From NCBI GenBank assembly GCA_937910695.1, contig CALEMW010000054.1, positions 13,831 through 77,830 on the forward strand: a stretch of DNA of 64,000 nt, given 5' to 3'. The notes beneath the pieces are model-generated. The model was not told where the DNA came from. It worked only from the letters and a program-made list of their open reading frames with translations, and made no database searches. How positions within the stretch are numbered: the first letter of the stretch is position 1; every line of letters starts with the position of its first letter. The stretch is from an uncultured bacterium (GTDB lineage: Bacteria > Krumholzibacteriota > Krumholzibacteriia > LZORAL124-64-63). The position numbers and the translations under genes are program-made. Below, piece by piece: positions 2,621 through 64,000 of this stretch.

Positions 2621-2696
2621 TCTCAGCGACGACTTGGCCCACTGTGGGCGGCCAGGGGGCGACCCCGGCAACGCGATCCATCATGAGGAGGAAATC

Positions 2697-3458
2697 ATGA
2701 AACGCATCTTCGCCTTGGGCCTTGCGGCCCTCGCATTGGCCACGACGGGATGTCTGCAGCTCGAATCGGCGGCCGTGATCGACAAAGACGGCAGCGGCAC
2801 GCTGGATATCACCTACACCGTGCCCCTCGATGTGGAGGAGGCCATCAAGGAGCTTTCCACTCTCGACGCCGGAAAGGACCAGGACATGGGCATGCCCCCC
2901 TTGTTCGACGACGGCTTCGATATCAGCGAGATGAAATCCGAGCTCACGCCCCTCGGCGTCAAGGTCAAGGATTACACCAACGGAGTCGAGAACGGCAGCC
3001 GCGTCATCCGCATGAGCCTGGCCTTCGACGACATCGACGGCCTGCAGGCCGCCCTGGAAAGTGCCGGAGGCAGCGACGGCGCCATGGGCCTGAGGCGCCT
3101 GCCTGACGGCAATTATTATTTCGGCGAAGTGGAAACAGCCGGCACCTATGACGAAGAAGAGGATGACTACGAGGAAATCATGCCCGATATGGACGACATG
3201 GAAGACATGGGCGCCGCCATGAAGAACGTCGCCCGCTCCATGGAGCTCATGGGAGTACTCATGAGCCGTGCCGATGAAATGATCATCTCCTGGCGGATTA
3301 CCGTGCCCGGAGACATCATCAGGCACAACGCCCAGCAGGTCGAGGGCCGCACCTGTGTGTGGAAGCTCGATTCCTCGGGCATGATGTCCGGCGACATGGA
3401 CGCTCCCGAAATCGTGTTCTCGGGAGAGGGCCTGAAGATCAAAGCTCCTGAAAAATAG
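2697..3458 (+). CDS. Hypothetical lipoprotein with strongly acidic/Met-rich C-terminal segment
   Basis: ATG 2697 preceded by AGGAGG. Lipobox 'LALATTGC'. 'EEEDDYEEIMPDMDDMEDMG' acidic stretch. The longer upstream ORF (from 2262) is R/P/C-rich junk. Confidence 0.55.
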   Translation: MKRIFALGLAALALATTGCLQLESAAVIDKDGSGTLDITYTVPLDVEEAIKELSTLDAGKDQDMGMPPLFDDGFDISEMKSELTPLGVKVKDYTNGVENGSRVIRMSLAFDDIDGLQAALESAGGSDGAMGLRRLPDGNYYFGEVETAGTYDEEEDDYEEIMPDMDDMEDMGAAMKNVARSMELMGVLMSRADEMIISWRITVPGDIIRHNAQQVEGRTCVWKLDSSGMMSGDMDAPEIVFSGEGLKIKAPEK

Positions 3459-3590
3459 CCCGGCTGTTCGCGGGCCCGGGGGGTGCGGTTTGTCCGCGCC
3501 CCCTTTTTTTTCTGCTCCCGGTTCCAACCTTTCTCCTCCATCATCCGTCCAAGGACTTGCATGGGGGCGCAAGGACCCCGGACCCAAATC

Positions 3591-4175
3591 ATGGAGACGG
3601 TCATGCAGGCCAGGGCTGAACGAATGCACGAGGAACGACACGACGGGTTCAACGCCCCCGACGTGTCCCTTCTCGTCCATCGCGCCCGCAACGGTGATCG
3701 CGCCGCGTTCGAGCAGCTCTACCGACTTCACGTGAGCAGGGTCTACGCCCTGTGTCTGCGGCTCTGCGACGACCGCGACGAAGCCGCGACATTGACCCAG
3801 GACGCCTTCGTGCGCGCCTGGCAGCACCTCGGGTCTTATCGCGGCGACAGTCAGCTGCTGACCTGGCTGCACCGTCTTACGGTGAACGTCGTCCTGGATC
3901 ACCGGCGGGCCTGGCGGCGGCGGGCCCTGCTCGAAATCGCCGACGGCGAGGACCCCGGCGACCGTTCCTCTGTCCATTACGACCGGACATCGACCCGCCT
4001 CGATCTCGAAAAGGCCCTCGCCACCCTCCCTCCCGGCGCCCGCACGGTCTTCGTGCTCCACGAGGTCGAGGGATACCGCCAGACCGAGATCGCCCTGATG
4101 ACGGGCGTCGCGCTCGGCACCGTCAAATCCCAACTCCACCGCGCCCGGGCACTGCTGCGGGAGGTCCTGCGATGA
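3591..4175 (+). CDS. ECF (sigma-70 family group IV) RNA polymerase sigma factor
   Basis: Region 2 ('LYRLHVSRVYALCLRLCDDRDEAATLTQDAFVRAWQHL') and region 4 HTH ('QTEIALMTGVALGTVKSQLHRARALLRE') motifs. Start uncertain (3561 or 3591). Confidence 0.8.
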   Translation: METVMQARAERMHEERHDGFNAPDVSLLVHRARNGDRAAFEQLYRLHVSRVYALCLRLCDDRDEAATLTQDAFVRAWQHLGSYRGDSQLLTWLHRLTVNVVLDHRRAWRRRALLEIADGEDPGDRSSVHYDRTSTRLDLEKALATLPPGARTVFVLHEVEGYRQTEIALMTGVALGTVKSQLHRARALLREVLR

Positions 4176-35143: not shown

Positions 35144-35382
35144 TGGTGCCACTGACCGGACGATGAACGGATCAGTCCATCGAGAACACGCGAAACATAC
35201 GTATAGTCCTGTGATTACGTGCGTTGCGATCACGCCACCTGCAACATCTCCGCCATGATCGAGGCCCCCACCCCCCATCCATTTGTCTCGCCCTCCCCCC
35301 TGTCCGCATATTGATCCCAGACGCCCCACGTAAACGAAACCGTTGCGCGGGGCGTCTCTGTATCCAAGCGAGGGGAGATATC

Positions 35383-35970
35383 ATGAAACCCGAATGGAAA
35401 CGACACGATGACACGGAGCTCGCCAGACAGGCCCTGGCCGGACGCGACGGCGCCTGGCGGGAGATCTACGACCGGACATGCCAGCCCCTCTTCAACTTCC
35501 TCTGCTACCAGACCGGCGACCGTGACCGGGCGCGGGATCTCCTGCAGGAGACCTACGTGACGGCCATGGCCCGGATCGGGGACTACCGCGGCGAGGGCCG
35601 GCTCGACGGCTGGCTGCGGACCATCGCCCTGCGCAAGTGCCTGGACTGGCGACGGCGCGCGGCGACGAGGCTGAGGAAGCTGGGGGAGCTGGCCCGCGAA
35701 CTCCCCTCGCCTCTCGAACGATCTGCGGAGGAGGACACCGTCGTGCTGGGCGACTCCTTCGAAGAGGCACTCGCCGGCCTCTCCTCGAAGCAGCGCGCGG
35801 CGCTCCTTCTCCGCGAACTCGAAGATCTCCCGTTCCGCGACGTCGCGGCGGCCCTGGGCTGCAGCGAGGCCACGGCGCGGGTTCATCACCACCGGGCGTG
35901 CCGCAACATGCGGCGGCTGCTCGGGGAGGGCGTCGCGCTCGTCCCCGACGGCACCACAGGAGGTGCTTGA
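35383..35970 (+). CDS. ECF sigma factor
   Basis: 'RDLLQETYVTAMARIGDYRGEGRLDGWLRTIALRKCLD' (region 2). 'LPFRDVAAALGCSEATARVHHHRACRNMR' (region 4). Confidence 0.8.
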   Translation: MKPEWKRHDDTELARQALAGRDGAWREIYDRTCQPLFNFLCYQTGDRDRARDLLQETYVTAMARIGDYRGEGRLDGWLRTIALRKCLDWRRRAATRLRKLGELARELPSPLERSAEEDTVVLGDSFEEALAGLSSKQRAALLLRELEDLPFRDVAAALGCSEATARVHHHRACRNMRRLLGEGVALVPDGTTGGA

Positions 35971-54256: not shown

Positions 54257-55396
54257 ATGACAACATCGAAGACCCGCTGCATCGGCATCCTCACCTCGGG
54301 CGGCGACTGTCCGGGGCTGAACGCCGCGATCCGCGGCATCACCAAGGCCGCCATCCAGGACTACGGCATTCAGGTCGTGGGCGTGCTCGACGGGTTCCGC
54401 GGGCTGGTCGAGAACCGCACCGTGCCGCTGAAGCACGACAACCTGAGCAACGTGCTGACCCTCGGCGGCACGATCCTCGGCACCTCGCGCGACAAGCCGG
54501 CCAAAATGGCCATGGGCGACCGCATCATGGACATGACCGACGTCGCGGTGCAGAACGCCCGCGCCAACGGCTTCGACTGTCTGGTCTGCCTGGGCGGCGG
54601 CGGCACCCAGAAGAACGCCTACCATCTCCACAAGGCCGGCGGCCTCGACGTGATGACGCTGCCGAAGACCATCGACAACGACGTGGCCGGCACCGACGTC
54701 AGCTTCGGCTACGACACGGCCCTGACCATCGCCGCCGAGGCCATCGACCGCCTGCACACCACGGCCACGAGCCACGACCGCATCATCATCGTGGAGGTGA
54801 TGGGCAACAAGGCGGGTTGGTTGGCGCTGGGCGCCGGCATCGCCGCGGGGGCCGACGTGATCCTGATCCCGGAGATCCCCTACGACATCGAGGCCGTGAA
54901 GGAGTACCTGATCGAACGTCGGCGACGGTTCGGCAAGCGGTTCTCCATCGTCGTGGTTGCCGAGGGCGCGGTGTCGAAGGAAGAGGCGGCCCTGGGCGCA
55001 CGGCCCAGTACGGAAACTCTGTTCGAAGACGAGGACAACGGCGTCTTCGGTCCGAAGCTGGTGATGGAATCGTTGGCGGGGCGTCTGGCCCGCCAACTCC
55101 AAGCCATGACCGGCACCGAGGCCCGCGTGACCTCCCTGGGGCACGTACAGCGCGGCGGCGTGCCGACGCCCACCGACCGCCTGCTCTGCACCCGACTGGG
55201 CGTCCGCGCCGCCGACTTCCTGGCCAAGGGCCGGTACAACGTGATGGTCGCAGTCCAGGGCAGAAAGATCGTTTCGGTGCCATTGGCCGAAGTGGCCGGC
55301 GTCCGGCGCACGATTCCCCTGAAGCATCCCTGGCTCGACGCCGCCATGAAGGTGGGCACCTGTCTGGGTGTGTCGCGCAGCGAGCTCCGGCCCTAG
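54257..55396 (+). CDS. pfkA: 6-phosphofructokinase (PfkA family)
   Basis: 'CIGILTSGGDCPGLNAAIRGI', 'LVCLGGGGTQKNA', 'TIDNDVAGTDVSFGYDTA', 'IVEVMGNKAGWLAL' PFK motifs. Confidence 0.85.
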   Translation: MTTSKTRCIGILTSGGDCPGLNAAIRGITKAAIQDYGIQVVGVLDGFRGLVENRTVPLKHDNLSNVLTLGGTILGTSRDKPAKMAMGDRIMDMTDVAVQNARANGFDCLVCLGGGGTQKNAYHLHKAGGLDVMTLPKTIDNDVAGTDVSFGYDTALTIAAEAIDRLHTTATSHDRIIIVEVMGNKAGWLALGAGIAAGADVILIPEIPYDIEAVKEYLIERRRRFGKRFSIVVVAEGAVSKEEAALGARPSTETLFEDEDNGVFGPKLVMESLAGRLARQLQAMTGTEARVTSLGHVQRGGVPTPTDRLLCTRLGVRAADFLAKGRYNVMVAVQGRKIVSVPLAEVAGVRRTIPLKHPWLDAAMKVGTCLGVSRSELRP

Positions 55397-55448
55397 AGCC
55401 TCGGTTCATCTGTTTTCTTCCCCGACGATTCGCGTTAATGTCACCACC

Positions 55449-57608
55449 ATGGCGCCCTCGAAAAAGACTTCCGACCGCTTCGCCCCCATCCTGCGCTGGC
55501 TCAACGACGAGGGCGCCTACTTTGCGCGTCCGGTCCATGTGCTCGGCGATCTGCGTCTCGCCAACCTGCGCCCGGACCTCATCGCCGGCCTGACCATCGC
55601 CGTGGTGCTGCTGCCCCAGGCCATCGCCTACGCCATGATCGCCGAACTGCCGCCGCAGACAGGGCTCTATACAGCCATCGTCGCGGCCGTCATCGGTGCT
55701 CTATGGGGCTCGTCCCGTCATCTTCACACAGGGCCGACCAACGCCAGCTCGCTGCTGGTGTTGGCCACTCTGCTGACAGTCGCCCGACCGGGCACCCACG
55801 ACTTCATCGTGGCGGCGGGGATGCTGGCGGTCATGGTGGGGATCATCAAGGTCGTCATGGGACTGGCGCGCATGGGGGCGCTGGTCAACTTCGTATCGGA
55901 TTCCGTGGTGGTGGGATTCACCGCCGGCGCCGCGGTGCTGATCAGCGTGAACCAGCTGCGGCACCTGCTGAAGCTCGACCTGCCGAGCCGGCCCGTGTTC
56001 CTCGAGACCGCGGCCGAGATCGTACGCAACGCGGGTTCGGCCCACGTCGCAAGCACGCTGCTGGGCGTGGCGACCCTCGTGATCGTTCTGCTACTCCGCA
56101 AGCTCAGGCCACGCTGGCCCGGCGCTCTGCTGGCCATGGTTCTGGCGGCCGTCGTCACCGGTGTGTTCGATCTCGACGCCAGGGGCGTCGTGGTACTCGG
56201 CGAACTGCCCCGCGCTCTGCCTCCATTGACGAGCCTGCCCCTTTTCGATCTGGAGCTGATCGGCAGACTGGCCGCCGGCGCGCTGGCTATCGCAGCCATC
56301 GGGCTGGTCGAGGCCATGTCCATCTCCCGGGCCATTGCGGCCCAGACAGGACAGCGACTCGACAGTAATCAGGAGTTCGTGGGACAGGGGCTGGCAAGCA
56401 TCGCCTGCGGTTTTCTGTCAGGGTACACGGCGTCGGGATCGTTCACCCGCACGGCTGTGAATTACGAAGCTGGTGGGCGGGGACCGCTGGCCGCAGCTTC
56501 GTCGGGGCTGTGGGTGCTTGTCGCGTTGTTCCTGCTGGCCCCACTGGCCGTCTATCTGCCTCAGACTGCGGTGGTGGGCGTGCTGCTGGCGACCGCCTAC
56601 GGCATGGTCGACTGGAAAGAGATCCTCCGCATCATGCGCAGCTCGCGGGGCGATTCGACGATCCTCATCGCCACCTTCGTCGCGACCCTCACCCTGCCCC
56701 TGGAATTCGCCGTACTGGCCGGCGTGTTCGTGTCGTTCGGCCGCTACCTCATGCGCACTTCGACGCCCGTCGTCCACGAGGTCGTGCCGGACGACTCCTT
56801 CGCCCACCTCGTCCCCCTACGCAACCAGCGGCCGGGGTGCCCCCAGCTGGGCATCGTGGAGATCGAAGGCTCGCTGTATTTCGGCGCCGTGAACCATGTG
56901 GAGGAAGAATTGGCGCACATGCGCGAAAGGCGGCCAGGACTGGTGTTCCTGCTGCTGCGCATGCAGCGGGTCAACCACTGCGATGTGAGCGGCATCCATA
57001 TGCTCGAGGCCCTGGTGCGACGCTTCCGCGACCGCGGCGGCGACGTGTTCCTTGAAGGAGTACGCCCGCGCGTACTGCACCTGATGAGCCTGAGCGGATT
57101 CCTGCGGACCCTCGGCCACCGCAACGTGCTGCGCAAGGACAGCACCATCGGCTATCTGTTCCACAACACGTTGCATCCGGGCATCTGCATCTACGAGTGC
57201 GAACACCGTGTCTTCGCCGAGTGCCAGGCCTTGCCAAAACACACCGAGAGCATCGACCACGAGAACCTGATGGACGTGGCCAGCCACAAAATCACTCAGA
57301 TCAGACCGAGCGAAGTGCGTCGGCTGATGGAAGAGAATCCCGACTCTGTGCTGCTGGTGGATGTGGGCGAAGAGCGTGAGTTCCGGAAGTGGCATGTTCC
57401 CGGCTCGATCAACAAGCCGTTGTCACGCCTCGCCAACATCGAGTCCGACCTGCCCGACGACCGCACCATCGTGGCCATCAGCCGCATCGGCCGCCGCAGC
57501 ACCCTGGCAGCACAGATCCTGTATGCAAAGGGATACCACGACGTGAGGAATCTGCACGGCGGAGTTCTGGGCTGGGAAGCTGCGGGCTACCCCATCGGGG
57601 TGGAATAG
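55449..57608 (+). CDS. SulP-family anion (sulfate/bicarbonate) transporter with C-terminal STAS domain and a rhodanese-like domain whose catalytic Cys is replaced by Ser
   Basis: SulP motif 'LIAGLTIAVVLLPQAIAYAMIA'. STAS region. Rhodanese 'VLLVDVGEEREFRKWHVPGSINKP...TIVAISRIGRRS...HGGVLGWEAAGYP'. Confidence 0.85.
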   Translation: MAPSKKTSDRFAPILRWLNDEGAYFARPVHVLGDLRLANLRPDLIAGLTIAVVLLPQAIAYAMIAELPPQTGLYTAIVAAVIGALWGSSRHLHTGPTNASSLLVLATLLTVARPGTHDFIVAAGMLAVMVGIIKVVMGLARMGALVNFVSDSVVVGFTAGAAVLISVNQLRHLLKLDLPSRPVFLETAAEIVRNAGSAHVASTLLGVATLVIVLLLRKLRPRWPGALLAMVLAAVVTGVFDLDARGVVVLGELPRALPPLTSLPLFDLELIGRLAAGALAIAAIGLVEAMSISRAIAAQTGQRLDSNQEFVGQGLASIACGFLSGYTASGSFTRTAVNYEAGGRGPLAAASSGLWVLVALFLLAPLAVYLPQTAVVGVLLATAYGMVDWKEILRIMRSSRGDSTILIATFVATLTLPLEFAVLAGVFVSFGRYLMRTSTPVVHEVVPDDSFAHLVPLRNQRPGCPQLGIVEIEGSLYFGAVNHVEEELAHMRERRPGLVFLLLRMQRVNHCDVSGIHMLEALVRRFRDRGGDVFLEGVRPRVLHLMSLSGFLRTLGHRNVLRKDSTIGYLFHNTLHPGICIYECEHRVFAECQALPKHTESIDHENLMDVASHKITQIRPSEVRRLMEENPDSVLLVDVGEEREFRKWHVPGSINKPLSRLANIESDLPDDRTIVAISRIGRRSTLAAQILYAKGYHDVRNLHGGVLGWEAAGYPIGVE

Positions 57609-57612
57609 AAAA

Positions 57613-58455
57613 TCAGATCGACCCGGGTCCGGCCAGGAAATCCGTAACGGCCTCGATCACGCCTGGATCGCGCAGCACACGATTGTGCCCCAATCCCTTA
57701 GTCGTCAGCAAGCGGCCCCGCTCCCCCGCCATATGAACGCCTTCCGCGTAGGGAACGTCGAGATCACCCGTGTCGTGAACCACCAGCAGGTTTTCGCCGA
57801 AGGTCCAGGCCTGGGCCGCCACATCGAACTCCAGGAACGGACTGCCGAAGATTTCGTCGACCCGGGCGCGCATGTTCGCTTCGGCCACCCCCGACAGGCG
57901 GAACCGGCGGGAGTAGTCGGAGAACACTTTGTCGATGTCGTTGGGAGCGCCGACGGTCACCAGCCGCTCCGGCGCCGGACCCGTCATGCGGGCCAACCCC
58001 AGCAGCAGCGACGGCGCTCCGAAGGAATGGCACACCGCGCCATGGAACGGTCCCAGGCGATCGAGGACTGCACCCAAGGCCCTTCCAGACTCGAGCATGT
58101 TGGTGGTCTTGCCGGAGGAATTGGCGTGTGCCGGCAGATCGACGCACACGGCGCGCAGACCCCGCGCCGCCAGAGCATGGGCGAATCCACGCATGCTCGC
58201 CCCGTGGGCGCTCCAACCGTGGGCGAGCAGCACGGCAGGCCCGGCGCCGATCTCATAAGCGGCGACGGTGCCCTTGTCCCAAGGGATGTCGTGCCGCACG
58301 GCGTCGGCCATGAATGCCAGAGCGCCACTCGACGGTCGGCTCGGAATCGGCGTGCAGAACAAGCGCAGGGCGAGACGGCCGGCGAGGCGCGGCGACACGA
58401 CGCCGACCGCGGTCAATCCGGCCGCGAACCAGCGCTCGACGGTGACGGGATTCAT
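57613..58455 (-). CDS. Alpha/beta hydrolase fold protein
   Basis: 'AVLLAHGWSAHG' (HG oxyanion). 'AVCHSFGA' nucleophile elbow. C-terminal 'GLGHNRV' His. Start ATG overlaps the upstream stop (TGATG). Confidence 0.65.
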   Translation of the reverse strand: MNPVTVERWFAAGLTAVGVVSPRLAGRLALRLFCTPIPSRPSSGALAFMADAVRHDIPWDKGTVAAYEIGAGPAVLLAHGWSAHGASMRGFAHALAARGLRAVCVDLPAHANSSGKTTNMLESGRALGAVLDRLGPFHGAVCHSFGAPSLLLGLARMTGPAPERLVTVGAPNDIDKVFSDYSRRFRLSGVAEANMRARVDEIFGSPFLEFDVAAQAWTFGENLLVVHDTGDLDVPYAEGVHMAGERGRLLTTKGLGHNRVLRDPGVIEAVTDFLAGPGSI

Positions 58456-59600
58456 CAGTAGAGCTCCAGCTCGACCAGCGTGCACTCGATGCCGCCATTG
58501 CGCAGGGGGACCTTGCGCTTGGGTCGCAGGCCCAGGGCCCCGACCAGCTCCTTCTCCCCACACAGCACCCAGGCGGTACTGCCGGTGCAACCGCGCTTGA
58601 GCCAGTCGCCCAGATCCTTGTAGATGGCGAAGGCCGTCTCGCGGTCCTCCAGGCGCACGCCGTAGGGAGGGTTGGTGACGATCAGGGAATCCTGCACGCC
58701 GTCGAGCTGGCGGAAGTCCACCCGCGACAGCTGGGTCTCGGACCCGCCCGGCACCCGGCGCAGGTTGGTACGCGTAGCCTTCACGGCGTCGCGGTCGAGG
58801 TCGGACCCCCGGACCAGTCCGGCGGGCACCTCAACCTGGGCCGCTTCCGCGTCGGCCTTCACCCGGTCCCAGAGGGCCTGATCGAAGTCGGGCAACGCGG
58901 CCGTCGGGGCCCGCTTCCTGCAACGCCGCCAGCCTGCCGGCACGTTGCCGGCGATGAGCAGCCCTTCGGCCAGCACCGTTCCCGAACCACACATGGGATC
59001 GTACAACGGACGTTCGCCGTGCCAGCGCGCGCCGGTCAGGATGGCGGCGGCCAGGGTCTCCTGCATGGGCGCGGCCACCGACTCCTTGCGGTAGCCGCGG
59101 CGGTGCATGGCGCCGCCCGAGGCGTCGATGCTGATGGTCGCGTTGTTGCGGCGGATGTTCAGGTCGAACCAGACGTCCGGGTTCTCGCGGTCCACCGAAG
59201 GTCGACGGCCCTCTTTGTCCACGAACCAGTCCGCGATGGCGTCCTTCATCTTCTGAGCCGCGTACTGCCCGTGGGTGATCCGGCTGTCCGAAACGTGGGA
59301 CTGGATGGCGAAGGTGCGCTCGCAGTCGAGCACCACGCTCCAGTCGAGCTGCTTGGTGCAGTTGTACAGGTCGTGTTCGGACTGGCACTCGAAGGTGACC
59401 AGTGGGGCGAGCACATGGCTGGCCAGACGAGATTCGAGCACAGTGCGGTAGAGGGTGCGCGGATCCGTCTGATAACTCACGCCCAGATACAGCGGTTCGA
59501 TACACTGGGCGCCCAGAGCGGACAGCTCGCGGGCGAGCAGTTCCTCGAGGCCTCCGGCGCACTTGGCGAAGACATTGCCGTTTCGTTGATAGTCGAACAT
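58455..59600 (-). CDS. THUMP-domain class I SAM-dependent RNA methyltransferase (RlmL/RlmK N-terminal-module-like, rRNA m2G methyltransferase family)
   Basis: THUMP region. 'LYDPMCGSGTVLAEG' SAM motif I. 'LIVTNPPYGVRL' NPPY motif IV. Confidence 0.75.
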   Translation of the reverse strand: MFDYQRNGNVFAKCAGGLEELLARELSALGAQCIEPLYLGVSYQTDPRTLYRTVLESRLASHVLAPLVTFECQSEHDLYNCTKQLDWSVVLDCERTFAIQSHVSDSRITHGQYAAQKMKDAIADWFVDKEGRRPSVDRENPDVWFDLNIRRNNATISIDASGGAMHRRGYRKESVAAPMQETLAAAILTGARWHGERPLYDPMCGSGTVLAEGLLIAGNVPAGWRRCRKRAPTAALPDFDQALWDRVKADAEAAQVEVPAGLVRGSDLDRDAVKATRTNLRRVPGGSETQLSRVDFRQLDGVQDSLIVTNPPYGVRLEDRETAFAIYKDLGDWLKRGCTGSTAWVLCGEKELVGALGLRPKRKVPLRNGGIECTLVELELY

Positions 59601-59697
59601 GTCCCCAGAATGGCACCTCGATGCGTCCAGCGCCAGCTCCGGACACACGAACGGCCGTTTCCCCGAGGAAACGGCCGTCATGTCGCAGGGATCGGAT

Positions 59698-60369
59698 CTA
59701 ACGGTACAGGGTCTTCACACCGCTCCAAGTGCCCGACTTGTTGCCGACTGTCGGGACGCAGCAGGTCAGGTCGCCCCAGATGATCACCTTGCCGCTGGAT
59801 GTGCGCTTCAGGCCGTTCATGTCGAACCAGCCGTTGCCGTCGTTCACGTACACGATCCCTGGCTGGGGCAGCCCGTCCACAGGCAAATTCGCCTGGAAGG
59901 GTCCAGAGAAGTGCATCACCAGGAAGTAGGGCGCATTGACGGAGTAACAGCCGCAGGTGCCGTTCATCGGTACGGTGATCTGGTGCAGACCCGGATCGTT
60001 GATCTCCAGAGTCACCGGCGGGGATATGCAGGCCGGAGCACCGGGCAACAGAAACTCACCCGACGGATCCCAAACAGCATCGCTCAGACCGCCTTCGATA
60101 GTCAGCAGGACAGGAATCTGGGCCGAAGTGAAATCGAGGAGCATCTGCACCGATTCCAACTTGAATCCGCCCTGGGCGCACGACACCTGTTCGTCGGGAT
60201 AGACCAGATATGCAAAGGACTGGTCGCCATAAACAAGGCCGGGCACCGAAGGCGGGACGGGGGGATTCAAGTTGCCGATCTGGCCCCCGGAACCCTGGGC
60301 GAAGACAGCTCCGGACACCATCAGCAAAACGACGGCGGCAATGAACGGAACGAGGCGGGCGCGCATCAT
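59698..60369 (-). CDS. Secreted Cys-containing hypothetical protein
   Basis: Signal peptide 'MMRARLVPFIAAVVLLMVSGAVFAQ'. 'NGTCGCYSV' and 'GDLTCCVP'. Downstream of the anti-sigma gene. Confidence 0.45.
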   Translation of the reverse strand: MMRARLVPFIAAVVLLMVSGAVFAQGSGGQIGNLNPPVPPSVPGLVYGDQSFAYLVYPDEQVSCAQGGFKLESVQMLLDFTSAQIPVLLTIEGGLSDAVWDPSGEFLLPGAPACISPPVTLEINDPGLHQITVPMNGTCGCYSVNAPYFLVMHFSGPFQANLPVDGLPQPGIVYVNDGNGWFDMNGLKRTSSGKVIIWGDLTCCVPTVGNKSGTWSGVKTLYR

Positions 60370-60483
60370 GAGCGATCTCCTGGAAGAGGCGGCACGGTCA
60401 TCAGGTCTGTCCATTGTACCAGAGATCAAACGGGACCTCAACCGGCCCCGTTTGTCCTGAGAAAAATGAAGAGATGATGCGCT

Positions 60484-61275
60484 CTATGGCGTTTCGAGCC
60501 GTTTTTTCAGCTCCAGGGCCCGCTGGCCATACACTGGGCTGTTCAACAGCCCTTCGAGCTCGATCAGAGCGCCATGGCCATCGTCGAGCATCAGGCGGGC
60601 CTGGACCAACTGCCAGCTCGCGCGCTCGGACACCGGCGGCTGGGGCGATACGGCGGCGGTCTGGAGCGCCGTGACTGCGGATCCTGTTCGACCAGCCATG
60701 AGACGGGCGCTGCCCAGATACAGATGAGCCTGATCGTTGCGGGACCAGGACGCGTCGCCGGCGCCGGCGGCGATGGCCTGTTCGAGACCAACGGCCGCGG
60801 TGTCCCAGTTCTGTACGAGGTAGGAGTCCATGGCGTCGTGGAACAGGCGGTCCGCCGTGGGGGCGTCGCCGCGCACGTCGATCTGACCGTAGGCCAAAGG
60901 TTCGAGAACAGCGAGGCCCGCAAACTTGCCCTCACCGGTCGGCACGAGCACCAGGGCGATGATCACAGCCGCCGTCACCATGGCAGACGCCAGGATCCGC
61001 GGTGTCAGAAGATCGGCGAAGAACCCGCGGAGACGAGCGTAGGTACTCGGCTGCGACTCGGCGCGCACCGCACGGAGAACGGCGACCAGCCGGGCGGGAT
61101 CGGCCGTCATCGCCGCAGCGGCCGGTGCACCTTCGAAGAGTTCCTCGAGAAGAGACGCGTCCTTGCGGGTGGCGGCTTCGAAGCGGTGGGCTGCATCGTC
61201 GTCGAGCAGGCCCAGTTCATAGGCGGCCAGCAGGTCTTCGTCACGGATCTCGATGTCGCGGTTTTCGTCACGCAT
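60484..61275 (-). CDS. Membrane-anchored anti-sigma factor with periplasmic TPR-like domain
   Basis: 8-nt overlap with the ECF sigma gene. Cytoplasmic N-terminus 'DLLAAYELGLLDDDAAHRFE'. Single TM 'ILASAMVTAAVIIALVLVP'. Confidence 0.6.
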   Translation of the reverse strand: MRDENRDIEIRDEDLLAAYELGLLDDDAAHRFEAATRKDASLLEELFEGAPAAAAMTADPARLVAVLRAVRAESQPSTYARLRGFFADLLTPRILASAMVTAAVIIALVLVPTGEGKFAGLAVLEPLAYGQIDVRGDAPTADRLFHDAMDSYLVQNWDTAAVGLEQAIAAGAGDASWSRNDQAHLYLGSARLMAGRTGSAVTALQTAAVSPQPPVSERASWQLVQARLMLDDGHGALIELEGLLNSPVYGQRALELKKRLETP

Positions 61276-61900
61276 GTCCGACCCCCGTCTCCATTCGATC
61301 CATCAGGCTGCGCAGCTGAGCGCGGCAACGGTGGAGGGCGACGTAGAAAGTGTTCCGGGTCAGGTCCGGATGTTCGAGGCAGACCGTTTCGAACGCGCGT
61401 TGGCTGATCTCGCGCTGCCCGCCGCCGCGTTCGTGACTTTCGAGGATGTGACGGAAGATGTCGCCGCAGCGGGGCGATCTTCTCGCCAACTCTGCGACGG
61501 CATTCTCGAGCAGTCCGGCGGTTTCGTCGTGGTCGAGACCCCCGCTGGGGTCTTTGCCCGGCGTCTCTTCGCCGATGCGTTGCCAGTCTTCCACCTGCGT
61601 CGTGCGTTCCGTCTCACGCCGGCGGGTCTGGTAGTGGTTGCCGATCACGTTCCTCAACACGGTCAGACTCCAGACGAGTAGGCCGCAGTCGCGGCTCCGT
61701 TCCCGGTATTTCCCCAGGATGATCCTGAGGGCGTCCTGAACCACATCCTCCACGTGGTCCGGTTGAACCCTCCGTTTGGTGATGGTCAGGAACCTTACAC
61801 GCAGCTCCTCGAACAGTACGGCTTCGGCTCGGCCGTCACCGCCTGCAGCACGATCGCCGAGGGTGTCGAAAGAGGCTTCGGGGGTCGGAACGTCGTTCAC
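61268..61900 (-). CDS. ECF sigma factor (start uncertain; GTG 61900 proposed)
   Basis: 'VVQDALRIILGKYRERSRDCGLLVWSLTVLRNVIGNHY' (region 2). 'QREISQRAFETVCLEHPDLTRNTFYVALHRCRAQLR' (region 4). Must start downstream of 62019 because the divergent gene starts at 62020. Confidence 0.7.
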   Translation of the reverse strand: MNDVPTPEASFDTLGDRAAGGDGRAEAVLFEELRVRFLTITKRRVQPDHVEDVVQDALRIILGKYRERSRDCGLLVWSLTVLRNVIGNHYQTRRRETERTTQVEDWQRIGEETPGKDPSGGLDHDETAGLLENAVAELARRSPRCGDIFRHILESHERGGGQREISQRAFETVCLEHPDLTRNTFYVALHRCRAQLRSLMDRMETGVGHA

Positions 61901-62019
61901 GGGGCCCTCCGGTTGCGCGATGGAACGGATCCGGAATCGTTGCCGCCAAGGGGCGGTGCGTGCATACTCGGACCAAGCGACTCCGCCCGCATCGCTGGAA
62001 TGAACCAGGGGGATGATCC

Positions 62020-64000
62020 ATGACCACAGGTCCACAGTCCACACGAGGGGCGGCTTCTTGTCGATTCTCACCCCGACGGGGGGTCGCTGACAAGATCCTA
62101 TTGGCCATGGCGTTCACTCTCATGGTCGCATCAGGAACCTGGGCCGATACGGGGCCAGCAGAATCAGCATGGATTCAGCATGTCAACGGACAAGACGACG
62201 AAGCCCGACATCTGCTGACCGGAGTCTCGATCGACGACGCCCGCGCCGTTTGGCTCAGGGGCTGGTTGGGATACTCCGGCGACTCTCCTCTCGCCCTGGC
62301 CGCCACTCTTGAAGCCGCAGGCGGCGAAGCCGTCCCGGCCTACACTGCCGCCCTCGCCGTCGCCGAAGCCGGCATCGACAGCCTCGGCATCCTGGTCTGC
62401 CTGGAGCGTTTGGCCACCCTGGCGGTCGAGGAGCGTCGCACCGAAGATGCCGTCGCTCATCTCGAACGGACCCTCATCCTCACCGATCTGCTCGACCAAC
62501 CCGTCGCCGCGCTCCTCGCCCACCTCGACCAGGGCCGGGTGCTGGTGCGCACCCGCGATGTGGAAGGCGCCACCCTGCACCTCGAAACCGCCCGCGCCAC
62601 GGCCGCAGAGCTGGGCATCCATCGCTGGCATGCCGACGCCGCCATGGCGTTCTCCATCGTCCATCGCCTGCGAATGGATCTCGAGGCATCGCTCGCCCTG
62701 CGAGAAGAGGCCTATGAAGCCTACACCGAGGCCGACTTCTTGCCGGGCCGCGCCAGGGCCCAGCATTACATCGGCACCATCCACGCCATGCGCGGCGAAC
62801 TGACGAAAGCCATGGTGCGCCTTCGCTCAGCCGAAGATCTCGCGCGCGAGTCGGGCAGCCTGGACGTCCTGGGCGGCTGCCTGGGAGACCAGGCCGGCAT
62901 CCACTACCTCATTGGAGAATTCGAACGCGCCGTGGATCAATACAATGAAGCCGCCTCCCTGGTCACCGATCCGCGGCGTGTGGGATGGTACGAGAACAAC
63001 ATCGGCTCGATTCTCTCTTACCAGCAGCGTCACGAAGAGGCTCTACCCCATTTCGCAACCGCACTGGCTTCGGTGCGCGCCACCGGCGACCGCAACACCG
63101 AGTCGACGATCATGCTCGCCATGGGCCAGACCCTGAGCGACCTCGGGCGGGTTGACGAAGCCCTCGACATCCTCGACCAGGCCATCGCCCACGCCCGCGA
63201 ATGGGATATCCCCCTGGACGAAGCCAAGGCCATCGAGGTCAAGGGCCACTCCCTGCTCGACGCCGGCCGTGTAGATGAAGCGGCGCCCTTGCTCGTCGCC
63301 GCCGGCGAGATGGCTGAGCGACTCGGCTACTTTGACCTTCAGGACTCCGTTCATCGCGGTCTGGCCACAGTGGCCCGACGTCAGGGCCGCCTTCACGACG
63401 CCATCGCTCACCTCGAACGGGCCGCCGCCACGGTGCAGGACGTCCGCCGCCGCAGCGGAGGCTCGGCCAGCGTGCAAAGCGGATATTTCGGCCAGGTGGG
63501 TCCCGCGTTCACCGAACTGGTGGACGTGCTCGACGATCTGAACGAACAGGAACCAGGAGCCGGCCACGATCACCGCGCCTGGGAGGTCGTCCAGCGCGGC
63601 CGCGCCAGGACCCTGCTGGACATGCTGGCCGAAGCCGAAGTGGATCTTCGCATCAGGGCCGATGCCTCCTATCGCGATCGGGAATCGGAACTCCTGACGG
63701 CCATGGCCGGCCTCGACGCACGCCGTCTCGCAGCCCCCGACAGCGCCGTCATCTTCCAGAGACAGGCCGTACAACTCGAAACGAACCTAGAAACCCTCGA
63801 AGCCGAACTGCGTGCAGCCGACCCCCGCTACGCAGAGCTGCGCTATCCCCGGCCGGTGAGTCTGACGGACATCCAGAGTGAAGTGCTGCAACCCGGCGAA
63901 GCTCTGCTCGAATACCAGCTGGGCGACGACCGCTCCCACGCCTGGATCGTCGGCACCGACCGGTTCGTAATGCACCGTCTCGCCGGACGCTCCGAAATCG
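62020..64000 (+). CDS. Secreted TPR-repeat protein with C-terminal CHAT (caspase-like) domain; 3' partial (runs off window). Absent from the supplied ORF track because no stop is reached
   Basis: Hand translation from ATG 62020 (or 62107) is open to 64000. Signal peptide 'ILLAMAFTLMVASGTWA'. TPR-like helices. CHAT N-terminal signature '...GEALLEYQLGDDRSHAWIVGTD'. Confidence 0.7.
   Translation, partial: MTTGPQSTRGAASCRFSPRRGVADKILLAMAFTLMVASGTWADTGPAESAWIQHVNGQDDEARHLLTGVSIDDARAVWLRGWLGYSGDSPLALAATLEAAGGEAVPAYTAALAVAEAGIDSLGILVCLERLATLAVEERRTEDAVAHLERTLILTDLLDQPVAALLAHLDQGRVLVRTRDVEGATLHLETARATAAELGIHRWHADAAMAFSIVHRLRMDLEASLALREEAYEAYTEADFLPGRARAQHYIGTIHAMRGELTKAMVRLRSAEDLARESGSLDVLGGCLGDQAGIHYLIGEFERAVDQYNEAASLVTDPRRVGWYENNIGSILSYQQRHEEALPHFATALASVRATGDRNTESTIMLAMGQTLSDLGRVDEALDILDQAIAHAREWDIPLDEAKAIEVKGHSLLDAGRVDEAAPLLVAAGEMAERLGYFDLQDSVHRGLATVARRQGRLHDAIAHLERAAATVQDVRRRSGGSASVQSGYFGQVGPAFTELVDVLDDLNEQEPGAGHDHRAWEVVQRGRARTLLDMLAEAEVDLRIRADASYRDRESELLTAMAGLDARRLAAPDSAVIFQRQAVQLETNLETLEAELRAADPRYAELRYPRPVSLTDIQSEVLQPGEALLEYQLGDDRSHAWIVGTDRFVMHRLAGRSEI

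Follow-up and report, generated by a model that had tools for sequence, protein, structure and literature searches.

A gene for a very probably exported protein, in which TPR repeats precede a CHAT protease domain, lies divergent to an operon for an ECF-like sigma factor and its anti-sigma factor in the 64,000 nucleotides of DNA analysed here (the window), which derive from an uncultured bacterium of the Krumholzibacteriota. The TPR-CHAT gene and the divergent sigma/anti-sigma operon constitute a conserved unit, which in Krumholzibacteria also includes a gene for a secreted jelly-roll protein (Table 1). The linkage of the TPR-CHAT gene to the operon is conserved and not accidental. Our preferred reading, to which we assign a probability of roughly 0.45, is that the unit is related to DdvA-DdvS but split and acting in trans, and that it is the periplasmic equivalent of the Csx29-Csx30-sigma pathway of craspase. 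In this reading, the protease might act as the sensor or the site-1 protease of the anti-sigma factor.

Table 1. Features of the TPR-CHAT and sigma/anti-sigma unit, in order of position in the window.
Feature	Position	Strand	Basis or remarks
Secreted jelly-roll (lectin/CBM-like) protein, 223 aa	59698..60369	-	6 Cys; conserved C-terminal K-x-L-Y-R
Promoter-like element of jelly-roll gene, TTGAGG-N17-TACAAT, extended TG	60413..60441	-	Promoter scan
Single-pass class-I anti-sigma factor, 263 aa	60484..61275	-	Orthologue alignments; 8-nt overlap with sigma gene
Periplasmic juxtamembrane motif of anti-sigma factor, LAVLEPLAYGQIDVRG, residues 121-136	60868..60915	-	Conserved in orthologues
Divergent ECF-like sigma factor, 210 aa	61268..61900	-	GTG start; GGAGGG Shine-Dalgarno-like sequence
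Promoter-like element of CHAT gene, TTGCCG-N17-CATACT	61940..61968	+	Conserved; consensus match
TPR-CHAT gene, part inside the window	62020..64000	+	First 660 of 995 codons; ~1,005 nt more beyond the window
Predicted Sec-type signal peptide, residues 1-42	62020..62145	+	Predicted cleavage TWA/DT; heuristic basis
Promoter-like element of sigma operon, TTGTCA-N18-GAGAAT	62064..62093	-	Promoter scan; within CHAT codons 15-25
TPR repeats, sequence-detectable, residues ~220-472	62677..63435	+	TPR_12, TPR_2, TPR_7, TPR_MalT
Pre-CHAT segment, three beta-strands EALLEYQLG / SHAWIVG / RFVMHRL	63886..64000	+	AF2 model

Architecture and export of the TPR-CHAT protein

The TPR-CHAT reading frame carries no stop codon in the 660 codons between its ATG and the last base of the window (ORF translation), just as originally predicted, and the start coordinate given for it was correct. 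A Shine-Dalgarno-like run, GGGGGA, is present 6 nucleotides upstream of this ATG. Six metagenome contigs (L001-L006) that are 99.9% identical to the window, with 4-15 mismatches per 9,001 positions, supply the complete gene of 995 codons and a stop codon. Sequence beyond the window also bears out the prediction of a CHAT protease: the frame closes only at 995 codons, and the catalytic dyad is intact, with His849 in IHLATHG and Cys896 in LSACS. Both residues are invariant in an alignment of 30 sequences that extends down to 22% identity.

The Pfam CHAT model (PF12770) matches residues 686-993 of the 995-residue protein with 201 bits (cut-off 24, E=3.2e-59). The match begins 26 residues past the end of the window and is absent from the 660 residues encoded inside it. 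The claim that the window holds the start of the CHAT domain is nevertheless fair in structural terms, as three beta-strands that come before the Pfam match still lie inside the window in the AF2 model of orthologue P0001, at its positions 598-604, 610-616, and 620-625. These correspond to residues ~627-654 of the window protein, whose numbering is higher by 29. The predicted TPR repeats are well supported, with TPR_12 scoring 93 bits (Pfam cut-off 30.1), and the model (pLDDT 88) contains 29 helices and a helical-repeat solenoid at residues ~46-622. The protein thus combines a TPR solenoid with a caspase-like alpha/beta fold behind it, an arrangement it shares with separase and Csx29. In the PDB, Csx29 alone gives a significant sequence-profile match to the CHAT domain (E 8e-5), and similarity of this domain to DdvA is undetectable at the sequence level. 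PDB searches with the full-length protein (phmmer and a full-length profile) returned generic TPR proteins only and were uninformative on the CHAT part.

The N terminus has the layout of a Sec-type signal peptide, in agreement with the original prediction, although this assignment is heuristic. The n-region is basic (R9, R15, R19, R20, K25), the hydrophobic core ILLAMAFTLMVA is 12-13 residues long with a Kyte-Doolittle value of 2.62, and the c-region SGTWA is followed by DT. A manual and hydropathy check found a basic n-region, a core in the 10-15-residue range, and small residues at -3 and -1. This n/h/c layout is common to almost all orthologues, of which P0001 and P0002 are shortened at the N terminus by the start chosen by the gene caller. 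Because gene callers place the start at Met30, the signal peptide is lost and database entries conceal the export of the protein, which is a practical warning for others who examine this family. A Tat signal was rejected, as the RR position is not kept among orthologues and there is no conserved twin-arginine motif. A lipoprotein signal was likewise rejected, there being no Cys at the cleavage region, and an uncleaved signal-anchor helix was judged unlikely because the hydrophobic core has only 12-13 residues.

A signal peptide or lipobox opens nearly every TPR-CHAT homologue found, down to 27% identity, the exception being one partial match of 1435 aa that has neither. The exported CHAT protein had been regarded as an oddity in the original prediction, a view that does not survive this survey or the periplasmic location of the CHAT domain of M. 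xanthus DdvA (PMC11506125). We conclude that the TPR-CHAT protein is very probably exported, as judged from its heuristic export features. The mature protein of ~950 residues would then be periplasmic, and its long TPR solenoid would lead into a CHAT protease (caspase-fold, His/Cys) that looks active.

The sigma factor, anti-sigma factor, and jelly-roll protein

The module of an ECF sigma factor, an anti-sigma factor, and a secreted protein that had been predicted at 61900..59698 is confirmed, with the sigma factor being a divergent ECF-like member. The accompanying label of cell-envelope stress was an assumption. The sigma factor falls short of the curated cut-offs for every ECF model, including Sigma70_r2 (E=1e-3, 19.1 bits, cut-off 24) and TIGR02937 (E=2e-6, 27.3 bits, cut-off 42.9). 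A profile built only from its clade matches the sigma-2 domain of ECF SigH (E=1e-5) and then other ECF sigma factors, which is a weak but specific signal. Of the sigma-4 domain, no more than the last helix aligns, and an insertion interrupts the helix-turn-helix region.

The overlapping anti-sigma gene codes for a protein of a ZASD-derived family. It includes an N-terminal anti-sigma domain that lacks zinc ligands, a transmembrane helix (ILASAMVTAAVIIALVLV, residues 94-111) whose position after the sigma-binding domain is conserved, and a helical periplasmic domain. The residues at the HxxxCxxC positions are A-x3-D-x2-L in the window protein, whereas H-x3-C-x2-C is kept in the orthologues from loci L025, L026, L028, and L029. 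The deeper relatives P0112, P0113, and P0117 match zf-HC2 (PF13490). The presence of this motif and domain in deeper relatives identifies the window protein, by homology, as a class I (ZASD-type) member that has lost its zinc ligands.

Just outside the membrane, the juxtamembrane motif is conserved in 13 orthologues reaching down to Eisenbacteria, and R135 is invariant among them. The motif may serve for docking or as the cleavage site. It is no real match to the separase motif (S/D/E)xExxR, as its acidic residue is at P3 and not P4. A search of the periplasmic domain against PDB sequences gave no significant match, and the description 'TPR-like' is unproven for this domain.

Pfam and NCBIfam gave no matches for either the anti-sigma factor or the jelly-roll protein. 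The latter had been described as Cys-rich and secreted. Its secretion is upheld, but Cys-rich is a mild overstatement for 6 Cys in ~199 mature residues. A relationship between this protein and the beta-rich C-terminal domain of distant anti-sigma factors was considered and rejected (hhalign probability 0.1%). The jelly-roll gene is a separately transcribed part of the Krumholzibacteria unit, as judged from its own promoter-like element in the promoter scan. This element is conserved in 8 other loci as TTGATG-N13/14-TGnTAnnAT.

Promoter-like elements

Each of 13 distinct loci, among them L023, L025, and L026, has exactly one copy of the promoter-like element of the CHAT gene, always 5' of this gene. 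The window holds one match where 0.09 are expected, and a regulon search revealed no extra copies in the window or elsewhere in the loci. The element of the sigma operon faces that of the CHAT gene. It is found as TTGCCA/TTGTCA-N18-nAnnAT in 9 of 10 anchored loci, and in the remaining locus (L028) the -35 is kept and the -10 is unclear. Within its -35 hexamer, which overlaps CHAT codons, third codon positions are conserved as much as first and second positions. The motif is absent from L023, the locus that has no sigma gene.

Conservation of the linkage

Co-occurrence of the sigma and TPR-CHAT genes in relatives, which the original prediction had made a point to check, is extensive. Of 16 orthologous loci, 15 have the sigma gene next to the CHAT gene and 14 the anti-sigma gene, with differing flanks. 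The genome scan for these loci used an alignment of the 16 orthologues in place of the over-diverse 30-sequence alignment. Nine further lineages, mostly of Acidobacteriota, have exported TPR-CHAT genes that are less closely related (27-33% identity). Six of the nine carry adjacent sigma and anti-sigma genes, and three have no adjacent sigma gene. The anti-sigma factors beside these distant genes are of the zf-HC2 or HxxxCxxC type. At least three gene orders are represented in the distant lineages, including divergent pairs and sigma-antisigma-CHAT operons, and in one case the stop and start codons overlap. A fusion of anti-sigma factor and TPR-CHAT was seen in none of 40 anti-sigma clusters and none of 55 TPR-CHAT matches.

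Locus L023 retains the CHAT gene, its promoter-like element, and the jelly-roll gene, and lacks adjacent sigma and anti-sigma genes. Therefore, the TPR-CHAT protease works, or is able to work, independently of these partners, unless they are encoded elsewhere in the L023 genome.

The module is flanked by housekeeping genes (RlmL-type methyltransferase, PFK, SulP) or by genes for secreted proteases. Genes located 3' of the CHAT gene code for large secreted proteins that carry FlgD_ig or Por_Secre_tail-like C-terminal domains or Peptidase_C25, and such a gene is orthologous in just a subset of loci.

Comparison with known systems

The M. xanthus protein DdvA is an ECF anti-sigma factor whose sensor is a periplasmic TPR-CHAT domain of solved structure (PMC11506125). 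For this domain, a function as site-1 protease has been proposed, and degradation was shown to depend on RseP (PMC11506125). As the activating signal is unknown, self-cleavage has escaped demonstration, and the structure, a dimeric arrow architecture, has an incomplete active site from which the three-helix motif is missing (PMC11506125). Reports of fused DdvA-like proteins are confined to Myxococcota and one Comamonas (PMC11506125). The protein described here resembles DdvA in having a periplasmic TPR solenoid followed by CHAT (~950 residues compared with ~900 in DdvA), in its His/Cys spacing (H849/C896 compared with H862/C907), in its genetic tie to an ECF-type sigma factor and a ZASD-family anti-sigma domain, and in the mechanism proposed, with CHAT as the site-1 protease ahead of RseP. 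However, DdvA is one polypeptide, whereas the anti-sigma factor and TPR-CHAT protein are encoded here by two genes on opposite strands. The latter has its own signal peptide, and cleavage would be intermolecular and carried out by a soluble enzyme. The anti-sigma factor also differs in having only 263 aa, a small helical periplasmic domain, and no zinc ligands. Moreover, there is no defence island near the module, which is found in Krumholzibacteriota, Eisenbacteria, and Acidobacteriota.

The craspase system provides a second precedent, in that the TPR-CHAT protein Csx29 cleaves Csx30, an inhibitor of the ECF-like sigma factor CASP-sigma (PMC10028731). Type III-E craspase and the present unit share a TPR-CHAT protease and an inhibitor of an ECF-like sigma factor, although cutting would have to be supposed in our case. 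Craspase is cytoplasmic, bound to Cas7-11/gRAMP, and activated by its target RNA. The tabulated neighbourhoods of the module contain no cas genes, Csx30, or CRISPR array. The TPR-CHAT protein has a signal peptide and is ~250 residues longer than Csx29, and the inhibitor is a membrane-spanning class-I anti-sigma factor rather than Csx30.

The E. coli RseA-DegS-RseP-RseB pathway employs a single-pass anti-sigma factor, a separate signal-activated periplasmic site-1 protease, and the periplasmic modulator RseB. The proposed function of the present unit is similar, with a single-pass anti-sigma factor, a separate periplasmic protease, and possibly a modulator, for which the jelly-roll protein would take the place of RseB. 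The components of the two pathways are not homologous, and where the E. coli pathway has a PDZ-regulated serine protease, the present unit has a cysteine protease of the caspase fold whose sensor would be the TPR part.

A link between CHAT and sigma factors is also already on record: CHAT-domain genes are conserved beside the sigma gene in ECF group 54 (PMC8999054). That group is described without an anti-sigma factor, and proteolysis is proposed to act on the sigma factor itself (PMC8999054), whereas a clear anti-sigma factor is present here. The main text of the ECF re-classification paper makes no mention of CHAT.

A possible mechanism and its implications

The periplasmic proteolytic circuit that was originally suggested is supported by the intact dyad, the very probable export, and the conserved linkage, and the mechanism can be put forward only conditionally. 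We infer the substrate, cleavage site, signal, regulon, and compartment of the TPR-CHAT system. At rest, the anti-sigma factor would keep the sigma factor bound on the cytoplasmic side of the membrane. A periplasmic signal, probably a protein or an envelope component, might be bound by the TPR solenoid, the jelly-roll protein, or both, and could thereby activate the soluble TPR-CHAT protein. The protease would then cleave the periplasmic part of the anti-sigma factor, for which the candidate site is the juxtamembrane LAVLEPLxYxQ(V/I)(E/D)xR. Finally, the stub would be cleared by intramembrane and cytoplasmic proteolysis to free the sigma factor. It counts against this mechanism that cleavage by the CHAT domain of DdvA is itself a proposal (PMC11506125). 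Further points against it are the L023 locus, the three distant lineages that lack a neighbouring sigma gene, the undetectable sequence similarity of the CHAT domain to DdvA, the sub-threshold scores of the sigma factor with all ECF models, and the heuristic basis of export.

The first cut of ECF anti-sigma factors is known for few systems, and the one CHAT-based case, DdvA, was reported as narrowly myxobacterial. It is conceivable, although we hold this broader idea to be doubtful, that soluble Sec-exported TPR-CHAT proteins are widespread, at least in Krumholzibacteriota, Eisenbacteria, and Acidobacteriota, as a hitherto undescribed class of site-1 proteases that act in trans on ZASD-type anti-sigma factors. 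If so, a single rule, that TPR-CHAT cuts an anti-sigma factor, would cover both fused DdvA and the cytoplasmic pair of craspase and Csx30 as special cases. In Krumholzibacteria, the promoters facing each other across the first protease codons could create a mutual-interference switch between expression of the protease and of the sigma and anti-sigma factors. Because the split version offers the protease and a ~150-residue periplasmic substrate as separate pieces that can be expressed in soluble form, cutting of the anti-sigma factor by CHAT is directly testable in vitro. The split version would also carry the link between caspase-fold proteases and sigma release into several poorly studied phyla.

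Alternative explanations

The strongly conserved CHAT promoter would be explained just as well if the gene were an output of the sigma factor. The anti-sigma factor would then sense through its own helical periplasmic domain, and the sigma factor would have TPR-CHAT as its principal target gene, a possible reading that we nonetheless consider rather unlikely. The protease would be induced by stress for periplasmic processing or degradation of envelope or secreted proteins, such as its T9SS-like-tailed neighbours, and may feed back on the anti-sigma factor. This explanation draws on the near-invariance of TTGCCG-N17-CATACT, its single occurrence before the CHAT gene at each locus, and its absence from the rest of the window. 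Divergent placement beside the sigma operon, as observed for the CHAT gene, is a common layout of ECF target genes. The genes for large secreted proteins 3' of the CHAT gene would be plausible sources of substrates, but they are orthologous in only some loci. Persistence of the CHAT and jelly-roll genes in L023 without sigma or anti-sigma genes is in keeping with this reading. However, the promoter-like element is retained there despite the missing adjacent sigma gene, and it is sigma-70-like rather than of the GGAAC/CGT type that is usual for ECF promoters. In addition, the CHAT gene of other phyla is part of the sigma/anti-sigma operon, in one case with stop and start codons that overlap, as is usual for partners that act together, and in both fused DdvA and craspase the protease acts upstream of the sigma factor.

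As has been proposed for DdvA, the TPR-CHAT protein might instead detect a phage-derived protein, with the sigma factor turning on distant defence genes. We regard this as improbable. PADLOC models matched neither the sigma factor nor the anti-sigma factor nor the jelly-roll protein, and their TPR and BovA matches to the protease were weak; there are no defence genes in any orthologous neighbourhood, where the flanks are housekeeping genes or secreted proteases. Furthermore, the module is not in a variable island but keeps the same conserved place on the chromosome in several genomes, and even in Myxococcota just some of the DdvA-like pairs have defence genes nearby.

That the genes are unrelated neighbours, kept adjacent by inherited synteny in one clade and by chance elsewhere, is highly improbable: the orthologous loci are indeed non-independent observations, and ECF sigma genes are frequent enough in the window (three, or about one per 21 kb) to give a ~14% chance of one within +/-1.5 kb of a random gene, but against this background adjacency in six of nine distant lineages with at least three gene orders has a binomial probability of ~4e-4, the module stays together although its flanks change, and a natural fusion of anti-sigma factor and TPR-CHAT exists in DdvA.

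A TPR-CHAT protein predicted to be exported

The TPR-CHAT gene starts at the ATG at position 62020 (+), which has a GGGGGA run 6 nt upstream, and its frame runs for 660 codons to the final base of the window without meeting a stop codon, as originally noticed. By hydropathy, the N-terminus (MTTGPQSTRGAASCRFSPRRGVADK-ILLAMAFTLMVA-SGTWA|DT) has the layout of a signal peptide, with basic residues in the n-region, a hydrophobic core of 12 residues (Kyte-Doolittle 2.62), and a c-region of small residues, and it carries no lipobox cysteine. Residues ~220-470 match TPR_12 at 93 bits (Pfam cut-off 30.1) and further TPR models, in agreement with the repeats read from the sequence.

At least 22 contigs from metagenomes of aquatic samples encode letter-identical copies of the window's anti-sigma protein, and the full TPR-CHAT gene was read from six of these (L001-L006). 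The six contigs represent the same population as the window, because they show only 4-15 differences from positions 55000-64000 (9,001 bases). On them the gene comprises 995 codons, counted from the window ATG, and reaches a stop codon. In its product the Pfam CHAT model matches residues 686-993 with 201 bits against a cut-off of 24 (E 3.2e-59), and the dyad motifs IHLATH849G and LSAC896S are present. His849 and Cys896 do not vary across 30 aligned sequences that extend down to 22% identity. Thus, these 99.9%-identical contigs keep the frame open past the window and provide the CHAT domain and dyad that the original prediction had anticipated.

The claim that the CHAT domain starts inside the window holds in part. 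Pfam detects no CHAT match in the 660 window-encoded residues and places the onset 26 residues past the window end. However, the AF2 model (pLDDT 88.3, pTM 0.80) has three beta-strands ahead of the Pfam start, which correspond to window residues ~627-654. The database copies all have the ORF called from Met30 (966 aa) and so lose the basic n-region together with some of the hydrophobic core, and export of the deposited proteins would probably escape automated signal-peptide prediction.

The closest homologues (48-59% identity) are all TPR and CHAT proteins of ~950-1020 aa from MAGs of Candidatus Krumholzibacteria/Krumholzibacteriota. The 36-42% tier includes Eisenbacteria and other Krumholzibacteria, and the 27-33% tier includes Thermoanaerobaculia, Pyrinomonadaceae, and metagenome contigs. 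Export had been regarded as a departure for a CHAT protein. Because nearly all homologues start with a signal peptide or lipobox (except for one 1435-aa partial match), exported TPR-CHAT proteins instead constitute a large family, and this protein is no exception. Four MAGs with a Krumholzibacteria-type module (L014, L020, L022, L023), which show the same synteny and proteins that are 46-58% identical, are labelled 'uncultured Fibrobacteraceae bacterium', a label that looks doubtful.

Linkage to a sigma module

In four homologous loci (L007, L009, L010, L011), the sigma/anti-sigma/jelly-roll operon adjoins the TPR-CHAT gene divergently, and the flanking genes vary (gingipain-like proteases, RlmL/SulP, QueF/QueG, MBOAT). 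HMMs of the window proteins were used to scan 22 loci, one genome per species, of which 16 distinct loci carry a TPR-CHAT orthologue (at least 36% identity) together with upstream DNA. The sigma gene is present in 15 of these 16 loci, the anti-sigma in 14 (one contig is cut), and the jelly-roll protein in 13. The exception is L023 (contig CAZAHC010000044.1), where the jelly-roll gene directly adjoins the CHAT gene and there is no sigma or anti-sigma gene. The two genes may have been cleanly lost or may have moved to another part of that genome, or the arrangement may be ancestral.

Among nine distant lineages with exported TPR-CHAT genes (27-33% identity), six have an adjacent sigma or sigma and anti-sigma gene, and three (P0028, L032, L033) have no adjacent sigma. 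The linkage in both sets supports the proposed signalling circuit. The distant anti-sigmas carry a different periplasmic domain, which looks beta-rich and is without Pfam annotation, so the sigma module is associated with TPR-CHAT as such and not with one anti-sigma type. A common end motif of this domain is GDYR(L/I)R(V/L)...LG.Y.L.I.

Coordinates of the module, its promoter-like elements, and related loci (positions without a handle refer to the window; L handles denote homologous loci)
Feature	Location	Strand	Observation
ECF-like sigma	61268-61900	-	Divergent; Sigma70_r2 E 1e-3, TIGR02937 (ECF superfamily) E 2e-6, both under model cut-offs
Anti-sigma	60484-61275	-	8-nt overlap with sigma gene
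Secreted jelly-roll protein	59698-60369	-	223 aa; AF2 pLDDT 89
CHAT promoter-like element, TTGCCG-N17-CATACT	61940-61968	+	Upstream of CHAT gene
Sigma-operon promoter-like element, TTGTCA-N18-GAGAAT	62093-62064	-	Inside CHAT codons 15-25
Jelly-roll promoter-like element	60441-60413	-	Extended -10; conserved; consensus match
Canonical ECF sigma	3459-4175	+	Sigma70_r2 and Sigma70_r4_2 above cut-off
Canonical ECF sigma	35215-35970	+	Sigma70_r2 and Sigma70_r4_2 above cut-off
Full TPR-CHAT gene	L001:6269-9256	-	Equals window 62020 onward
Gene after TPR-CHAT	L001:3644-6097	-	817 aa; directly beyond window end; internal repeat of ~180 residues
Split sigma gene	L010:5284-5906	-	Krumholzibacteriia MAG
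CHAT and jelly-roll genes	L023:5718-9754		
Distant anti-sigma with end motif	L012:10328-11119		Sigma (or sigma and anti-sigma) downstream of TPR-CHAT, same strand
Distant anti-sigmas with end motif	L013:5077-5880; 2108-2941		Sigma-antisigma-CHAT operon
Distant anti-sigma with end motif (locus L030/L031)	L030:5651-6520		Operon with TPR-CHAT
Distant anti-sigma with end motif	L036:4219-5004		Operon, stop/start overlapping
Distant anti-sigma with end motif	L037:3280-4308		Divergent to TPR-CHAT, as in window
Distant sigma module	L038		Upstream of TPR-CHAT, same strand

Components of the sigma module

A profile built solely from the sigma factors of this clade hits SigH, an ECF sigma, in its sigma-2 domain (E 1e-5), along with further ECF sigmas; its sigma-4 alignment is limited to the last helix, and the clade carries an insertion within sigma-4. 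With three sigma genes in 64 kb, or about one per 21 kb, the source genome is rich in ECF sigmas. In L010, a frameshift splits the sigma gene into 163-aa and 44-aa pieces, which reflects misassembly or a pseudogene.

At its N-terminus the anti-sigma shows the helix pattern DLLAAYELGLLD...RFE; a single TM helix (residues 94-111) leads to a periplasmic part that is helical, and Pfam gives no match. Its AxxxDxxL sequence, shared by its clade, aligns exactly with HxxxCxxC of deeper orthologues in L025, L026, L028, and L029, and zf-HC2 (PF13490) is found in 3 of 40 family clusters. Because orthologues retain the zinc ligands in place and zf-HC2 occurs in the family, the protein is a class-I anti-sigma in which these ligands were lost, a zinc-free descendant of a ZASD-type anti-sigma domain. 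A periplasmic juxtamembrane motif, LAVLEPLxYxQ(V/I)(E/D)xR, is kept in all 13 aligned orthologues, and its Arg (R135) is invariant.

The jelly-roll protein is restricted to Krumholzibacteria (23 clusters). Its AF2 fold is a jelly-roll sandwich, which marks it as a binding module and not an enzyme.

Promoter-like elements

Cross-locus alignment of the divergent region revealed two conserved promoter-like elements, and the jelly-roll gene has a conserved one of its own; all three are consensus matches. TTGCCG-N17-CATACT is matched just once in the 64-kb window, against 0.09 matches expected. Each of 13 distinct loci, including the Eisenbacteria-like L025 and L026, plus L023, has exactly one copy, and this copy always precedes the CHAT gene. 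For the sigma-operon element, third codon positions of the -35 hexamer are conserved as strongly as first and second positions, and the DNA TTG(C/T)C is retained where the encoded amino acids differ (G/D/C before K). The odd conservation of 'RxSP....GK' in the signal-peptide n-region seems to be a side effect of this overlapping DNA element. L023 has both the CHAT and jelly-roll elements, and its CHAT 5' codons lack the embedded motif just as the locus lacks the sigma gene. If both divergent elements are real, the predicted transcription starts (~61975 on the plus and ~62057 on the minus strand) would face each other, and the transcripts would overlap head-on for ~80 nt, an unusual layout for conserved putative promoters.

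Relation to known systems

The top Foldseek matches in the PDB are M. xanthus DdvA (8RW5, E 9e-15; 8ROT, E 1.4e-13), aligned over ~1000 columns at 17-18% identity, followed by human separase and craspase Csx29. At the sequence level, a profile limited to the CHAT domain matches Csx29 (E 8e-5) and, weakly, separase, and does not detect DdvA.

In DdvA, a single-pass anti-sigma, a TPR-CHAT module makes up the periplasmic part of ~900 residues, and the CHAT domain is proposed as a site-1 protease that cuts the linker to the TM helix (PMC11506125). RseP-dependent degradation of truncated DdvA was shown, whereas self-cleavage was not, the signal being unknown (PMC11506125). Fused DdvA-like proteins are reported only from Myxococcota and one Comamonas (PMC11506125); the window's module would be a split, trans-acting relative of DdvA-DdvS in phyla without a reported fused form. 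In type III-E CRISPR, the cytoplasmic TPR-CHAT protein Csx29 cleaves Csx30, an inhibitor of an ECF-like sigma (PMC10028731), whereas the TPR-CHAT protein described here is predicted to be exported. ECF group 54, which is without an anti-sigma, has CHAT genes in its genomic context (PMC8999054, review). No description of the split arrangement was found in the literature searched; ECF classification supplements lie outside that search and may mention it. The main value of the split module is a cleaner two-component test of a CHAT protease cutting an anti-sigma.

Possible function

In fused DdvA, in the translationally coupled operons, and in craspase, a TPR-CHAT protease precedes an ECF-type sigma in the pathway and targets the inhibitor of that sigma. 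We therefore favour, tentatively (probability roughly 0.45), a model where the exported TPR-CHAT protein would sense the signal and serve as site-1 protease for the anti-sigma, or would at minimum be its sensing partner in the periplasm. The protein would work in trans, and the juxtamembrane motif with the invariant Arg may be its site of action. For the jelly-roll protein, the model envisages a co-sensing or modulating role specific to this clade.

The main alternative, that the CHAT gene is a target of the sigma factor, seems less likely; the gene's dedicated conserved promoter-like element, the situation in L023, and the secreted proteins encoded nearby all fit it. It is compatible with proteolysis of the anti-sigma in trans, since a positive feedback loop would combine the two. 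A role against phage, as proposed for DdvA, is possible but finds no support at the locus: PADLOC is negative and there are no defence genes nearby. Chance adjacency is unlikely: with three sigma genes in the 64-kb window giving a ~14% background within +/-1.5 kb, six of nine adjacencies have a binomial estimate of ~4e-4.

The gene after TPR-CHAT encodes a protein with a FlgD_ig/Por_Secre_tail-like sorting domain at its C-terminus and is orthologous in seven loci. The same position in L007, L010, L017, and L024 is occupied by a 1,200-1,400-aa Peptidase_C25 protein (gingipain-like and likewise of the caspase fold), which carries a like C-terminal domain in three of the four.
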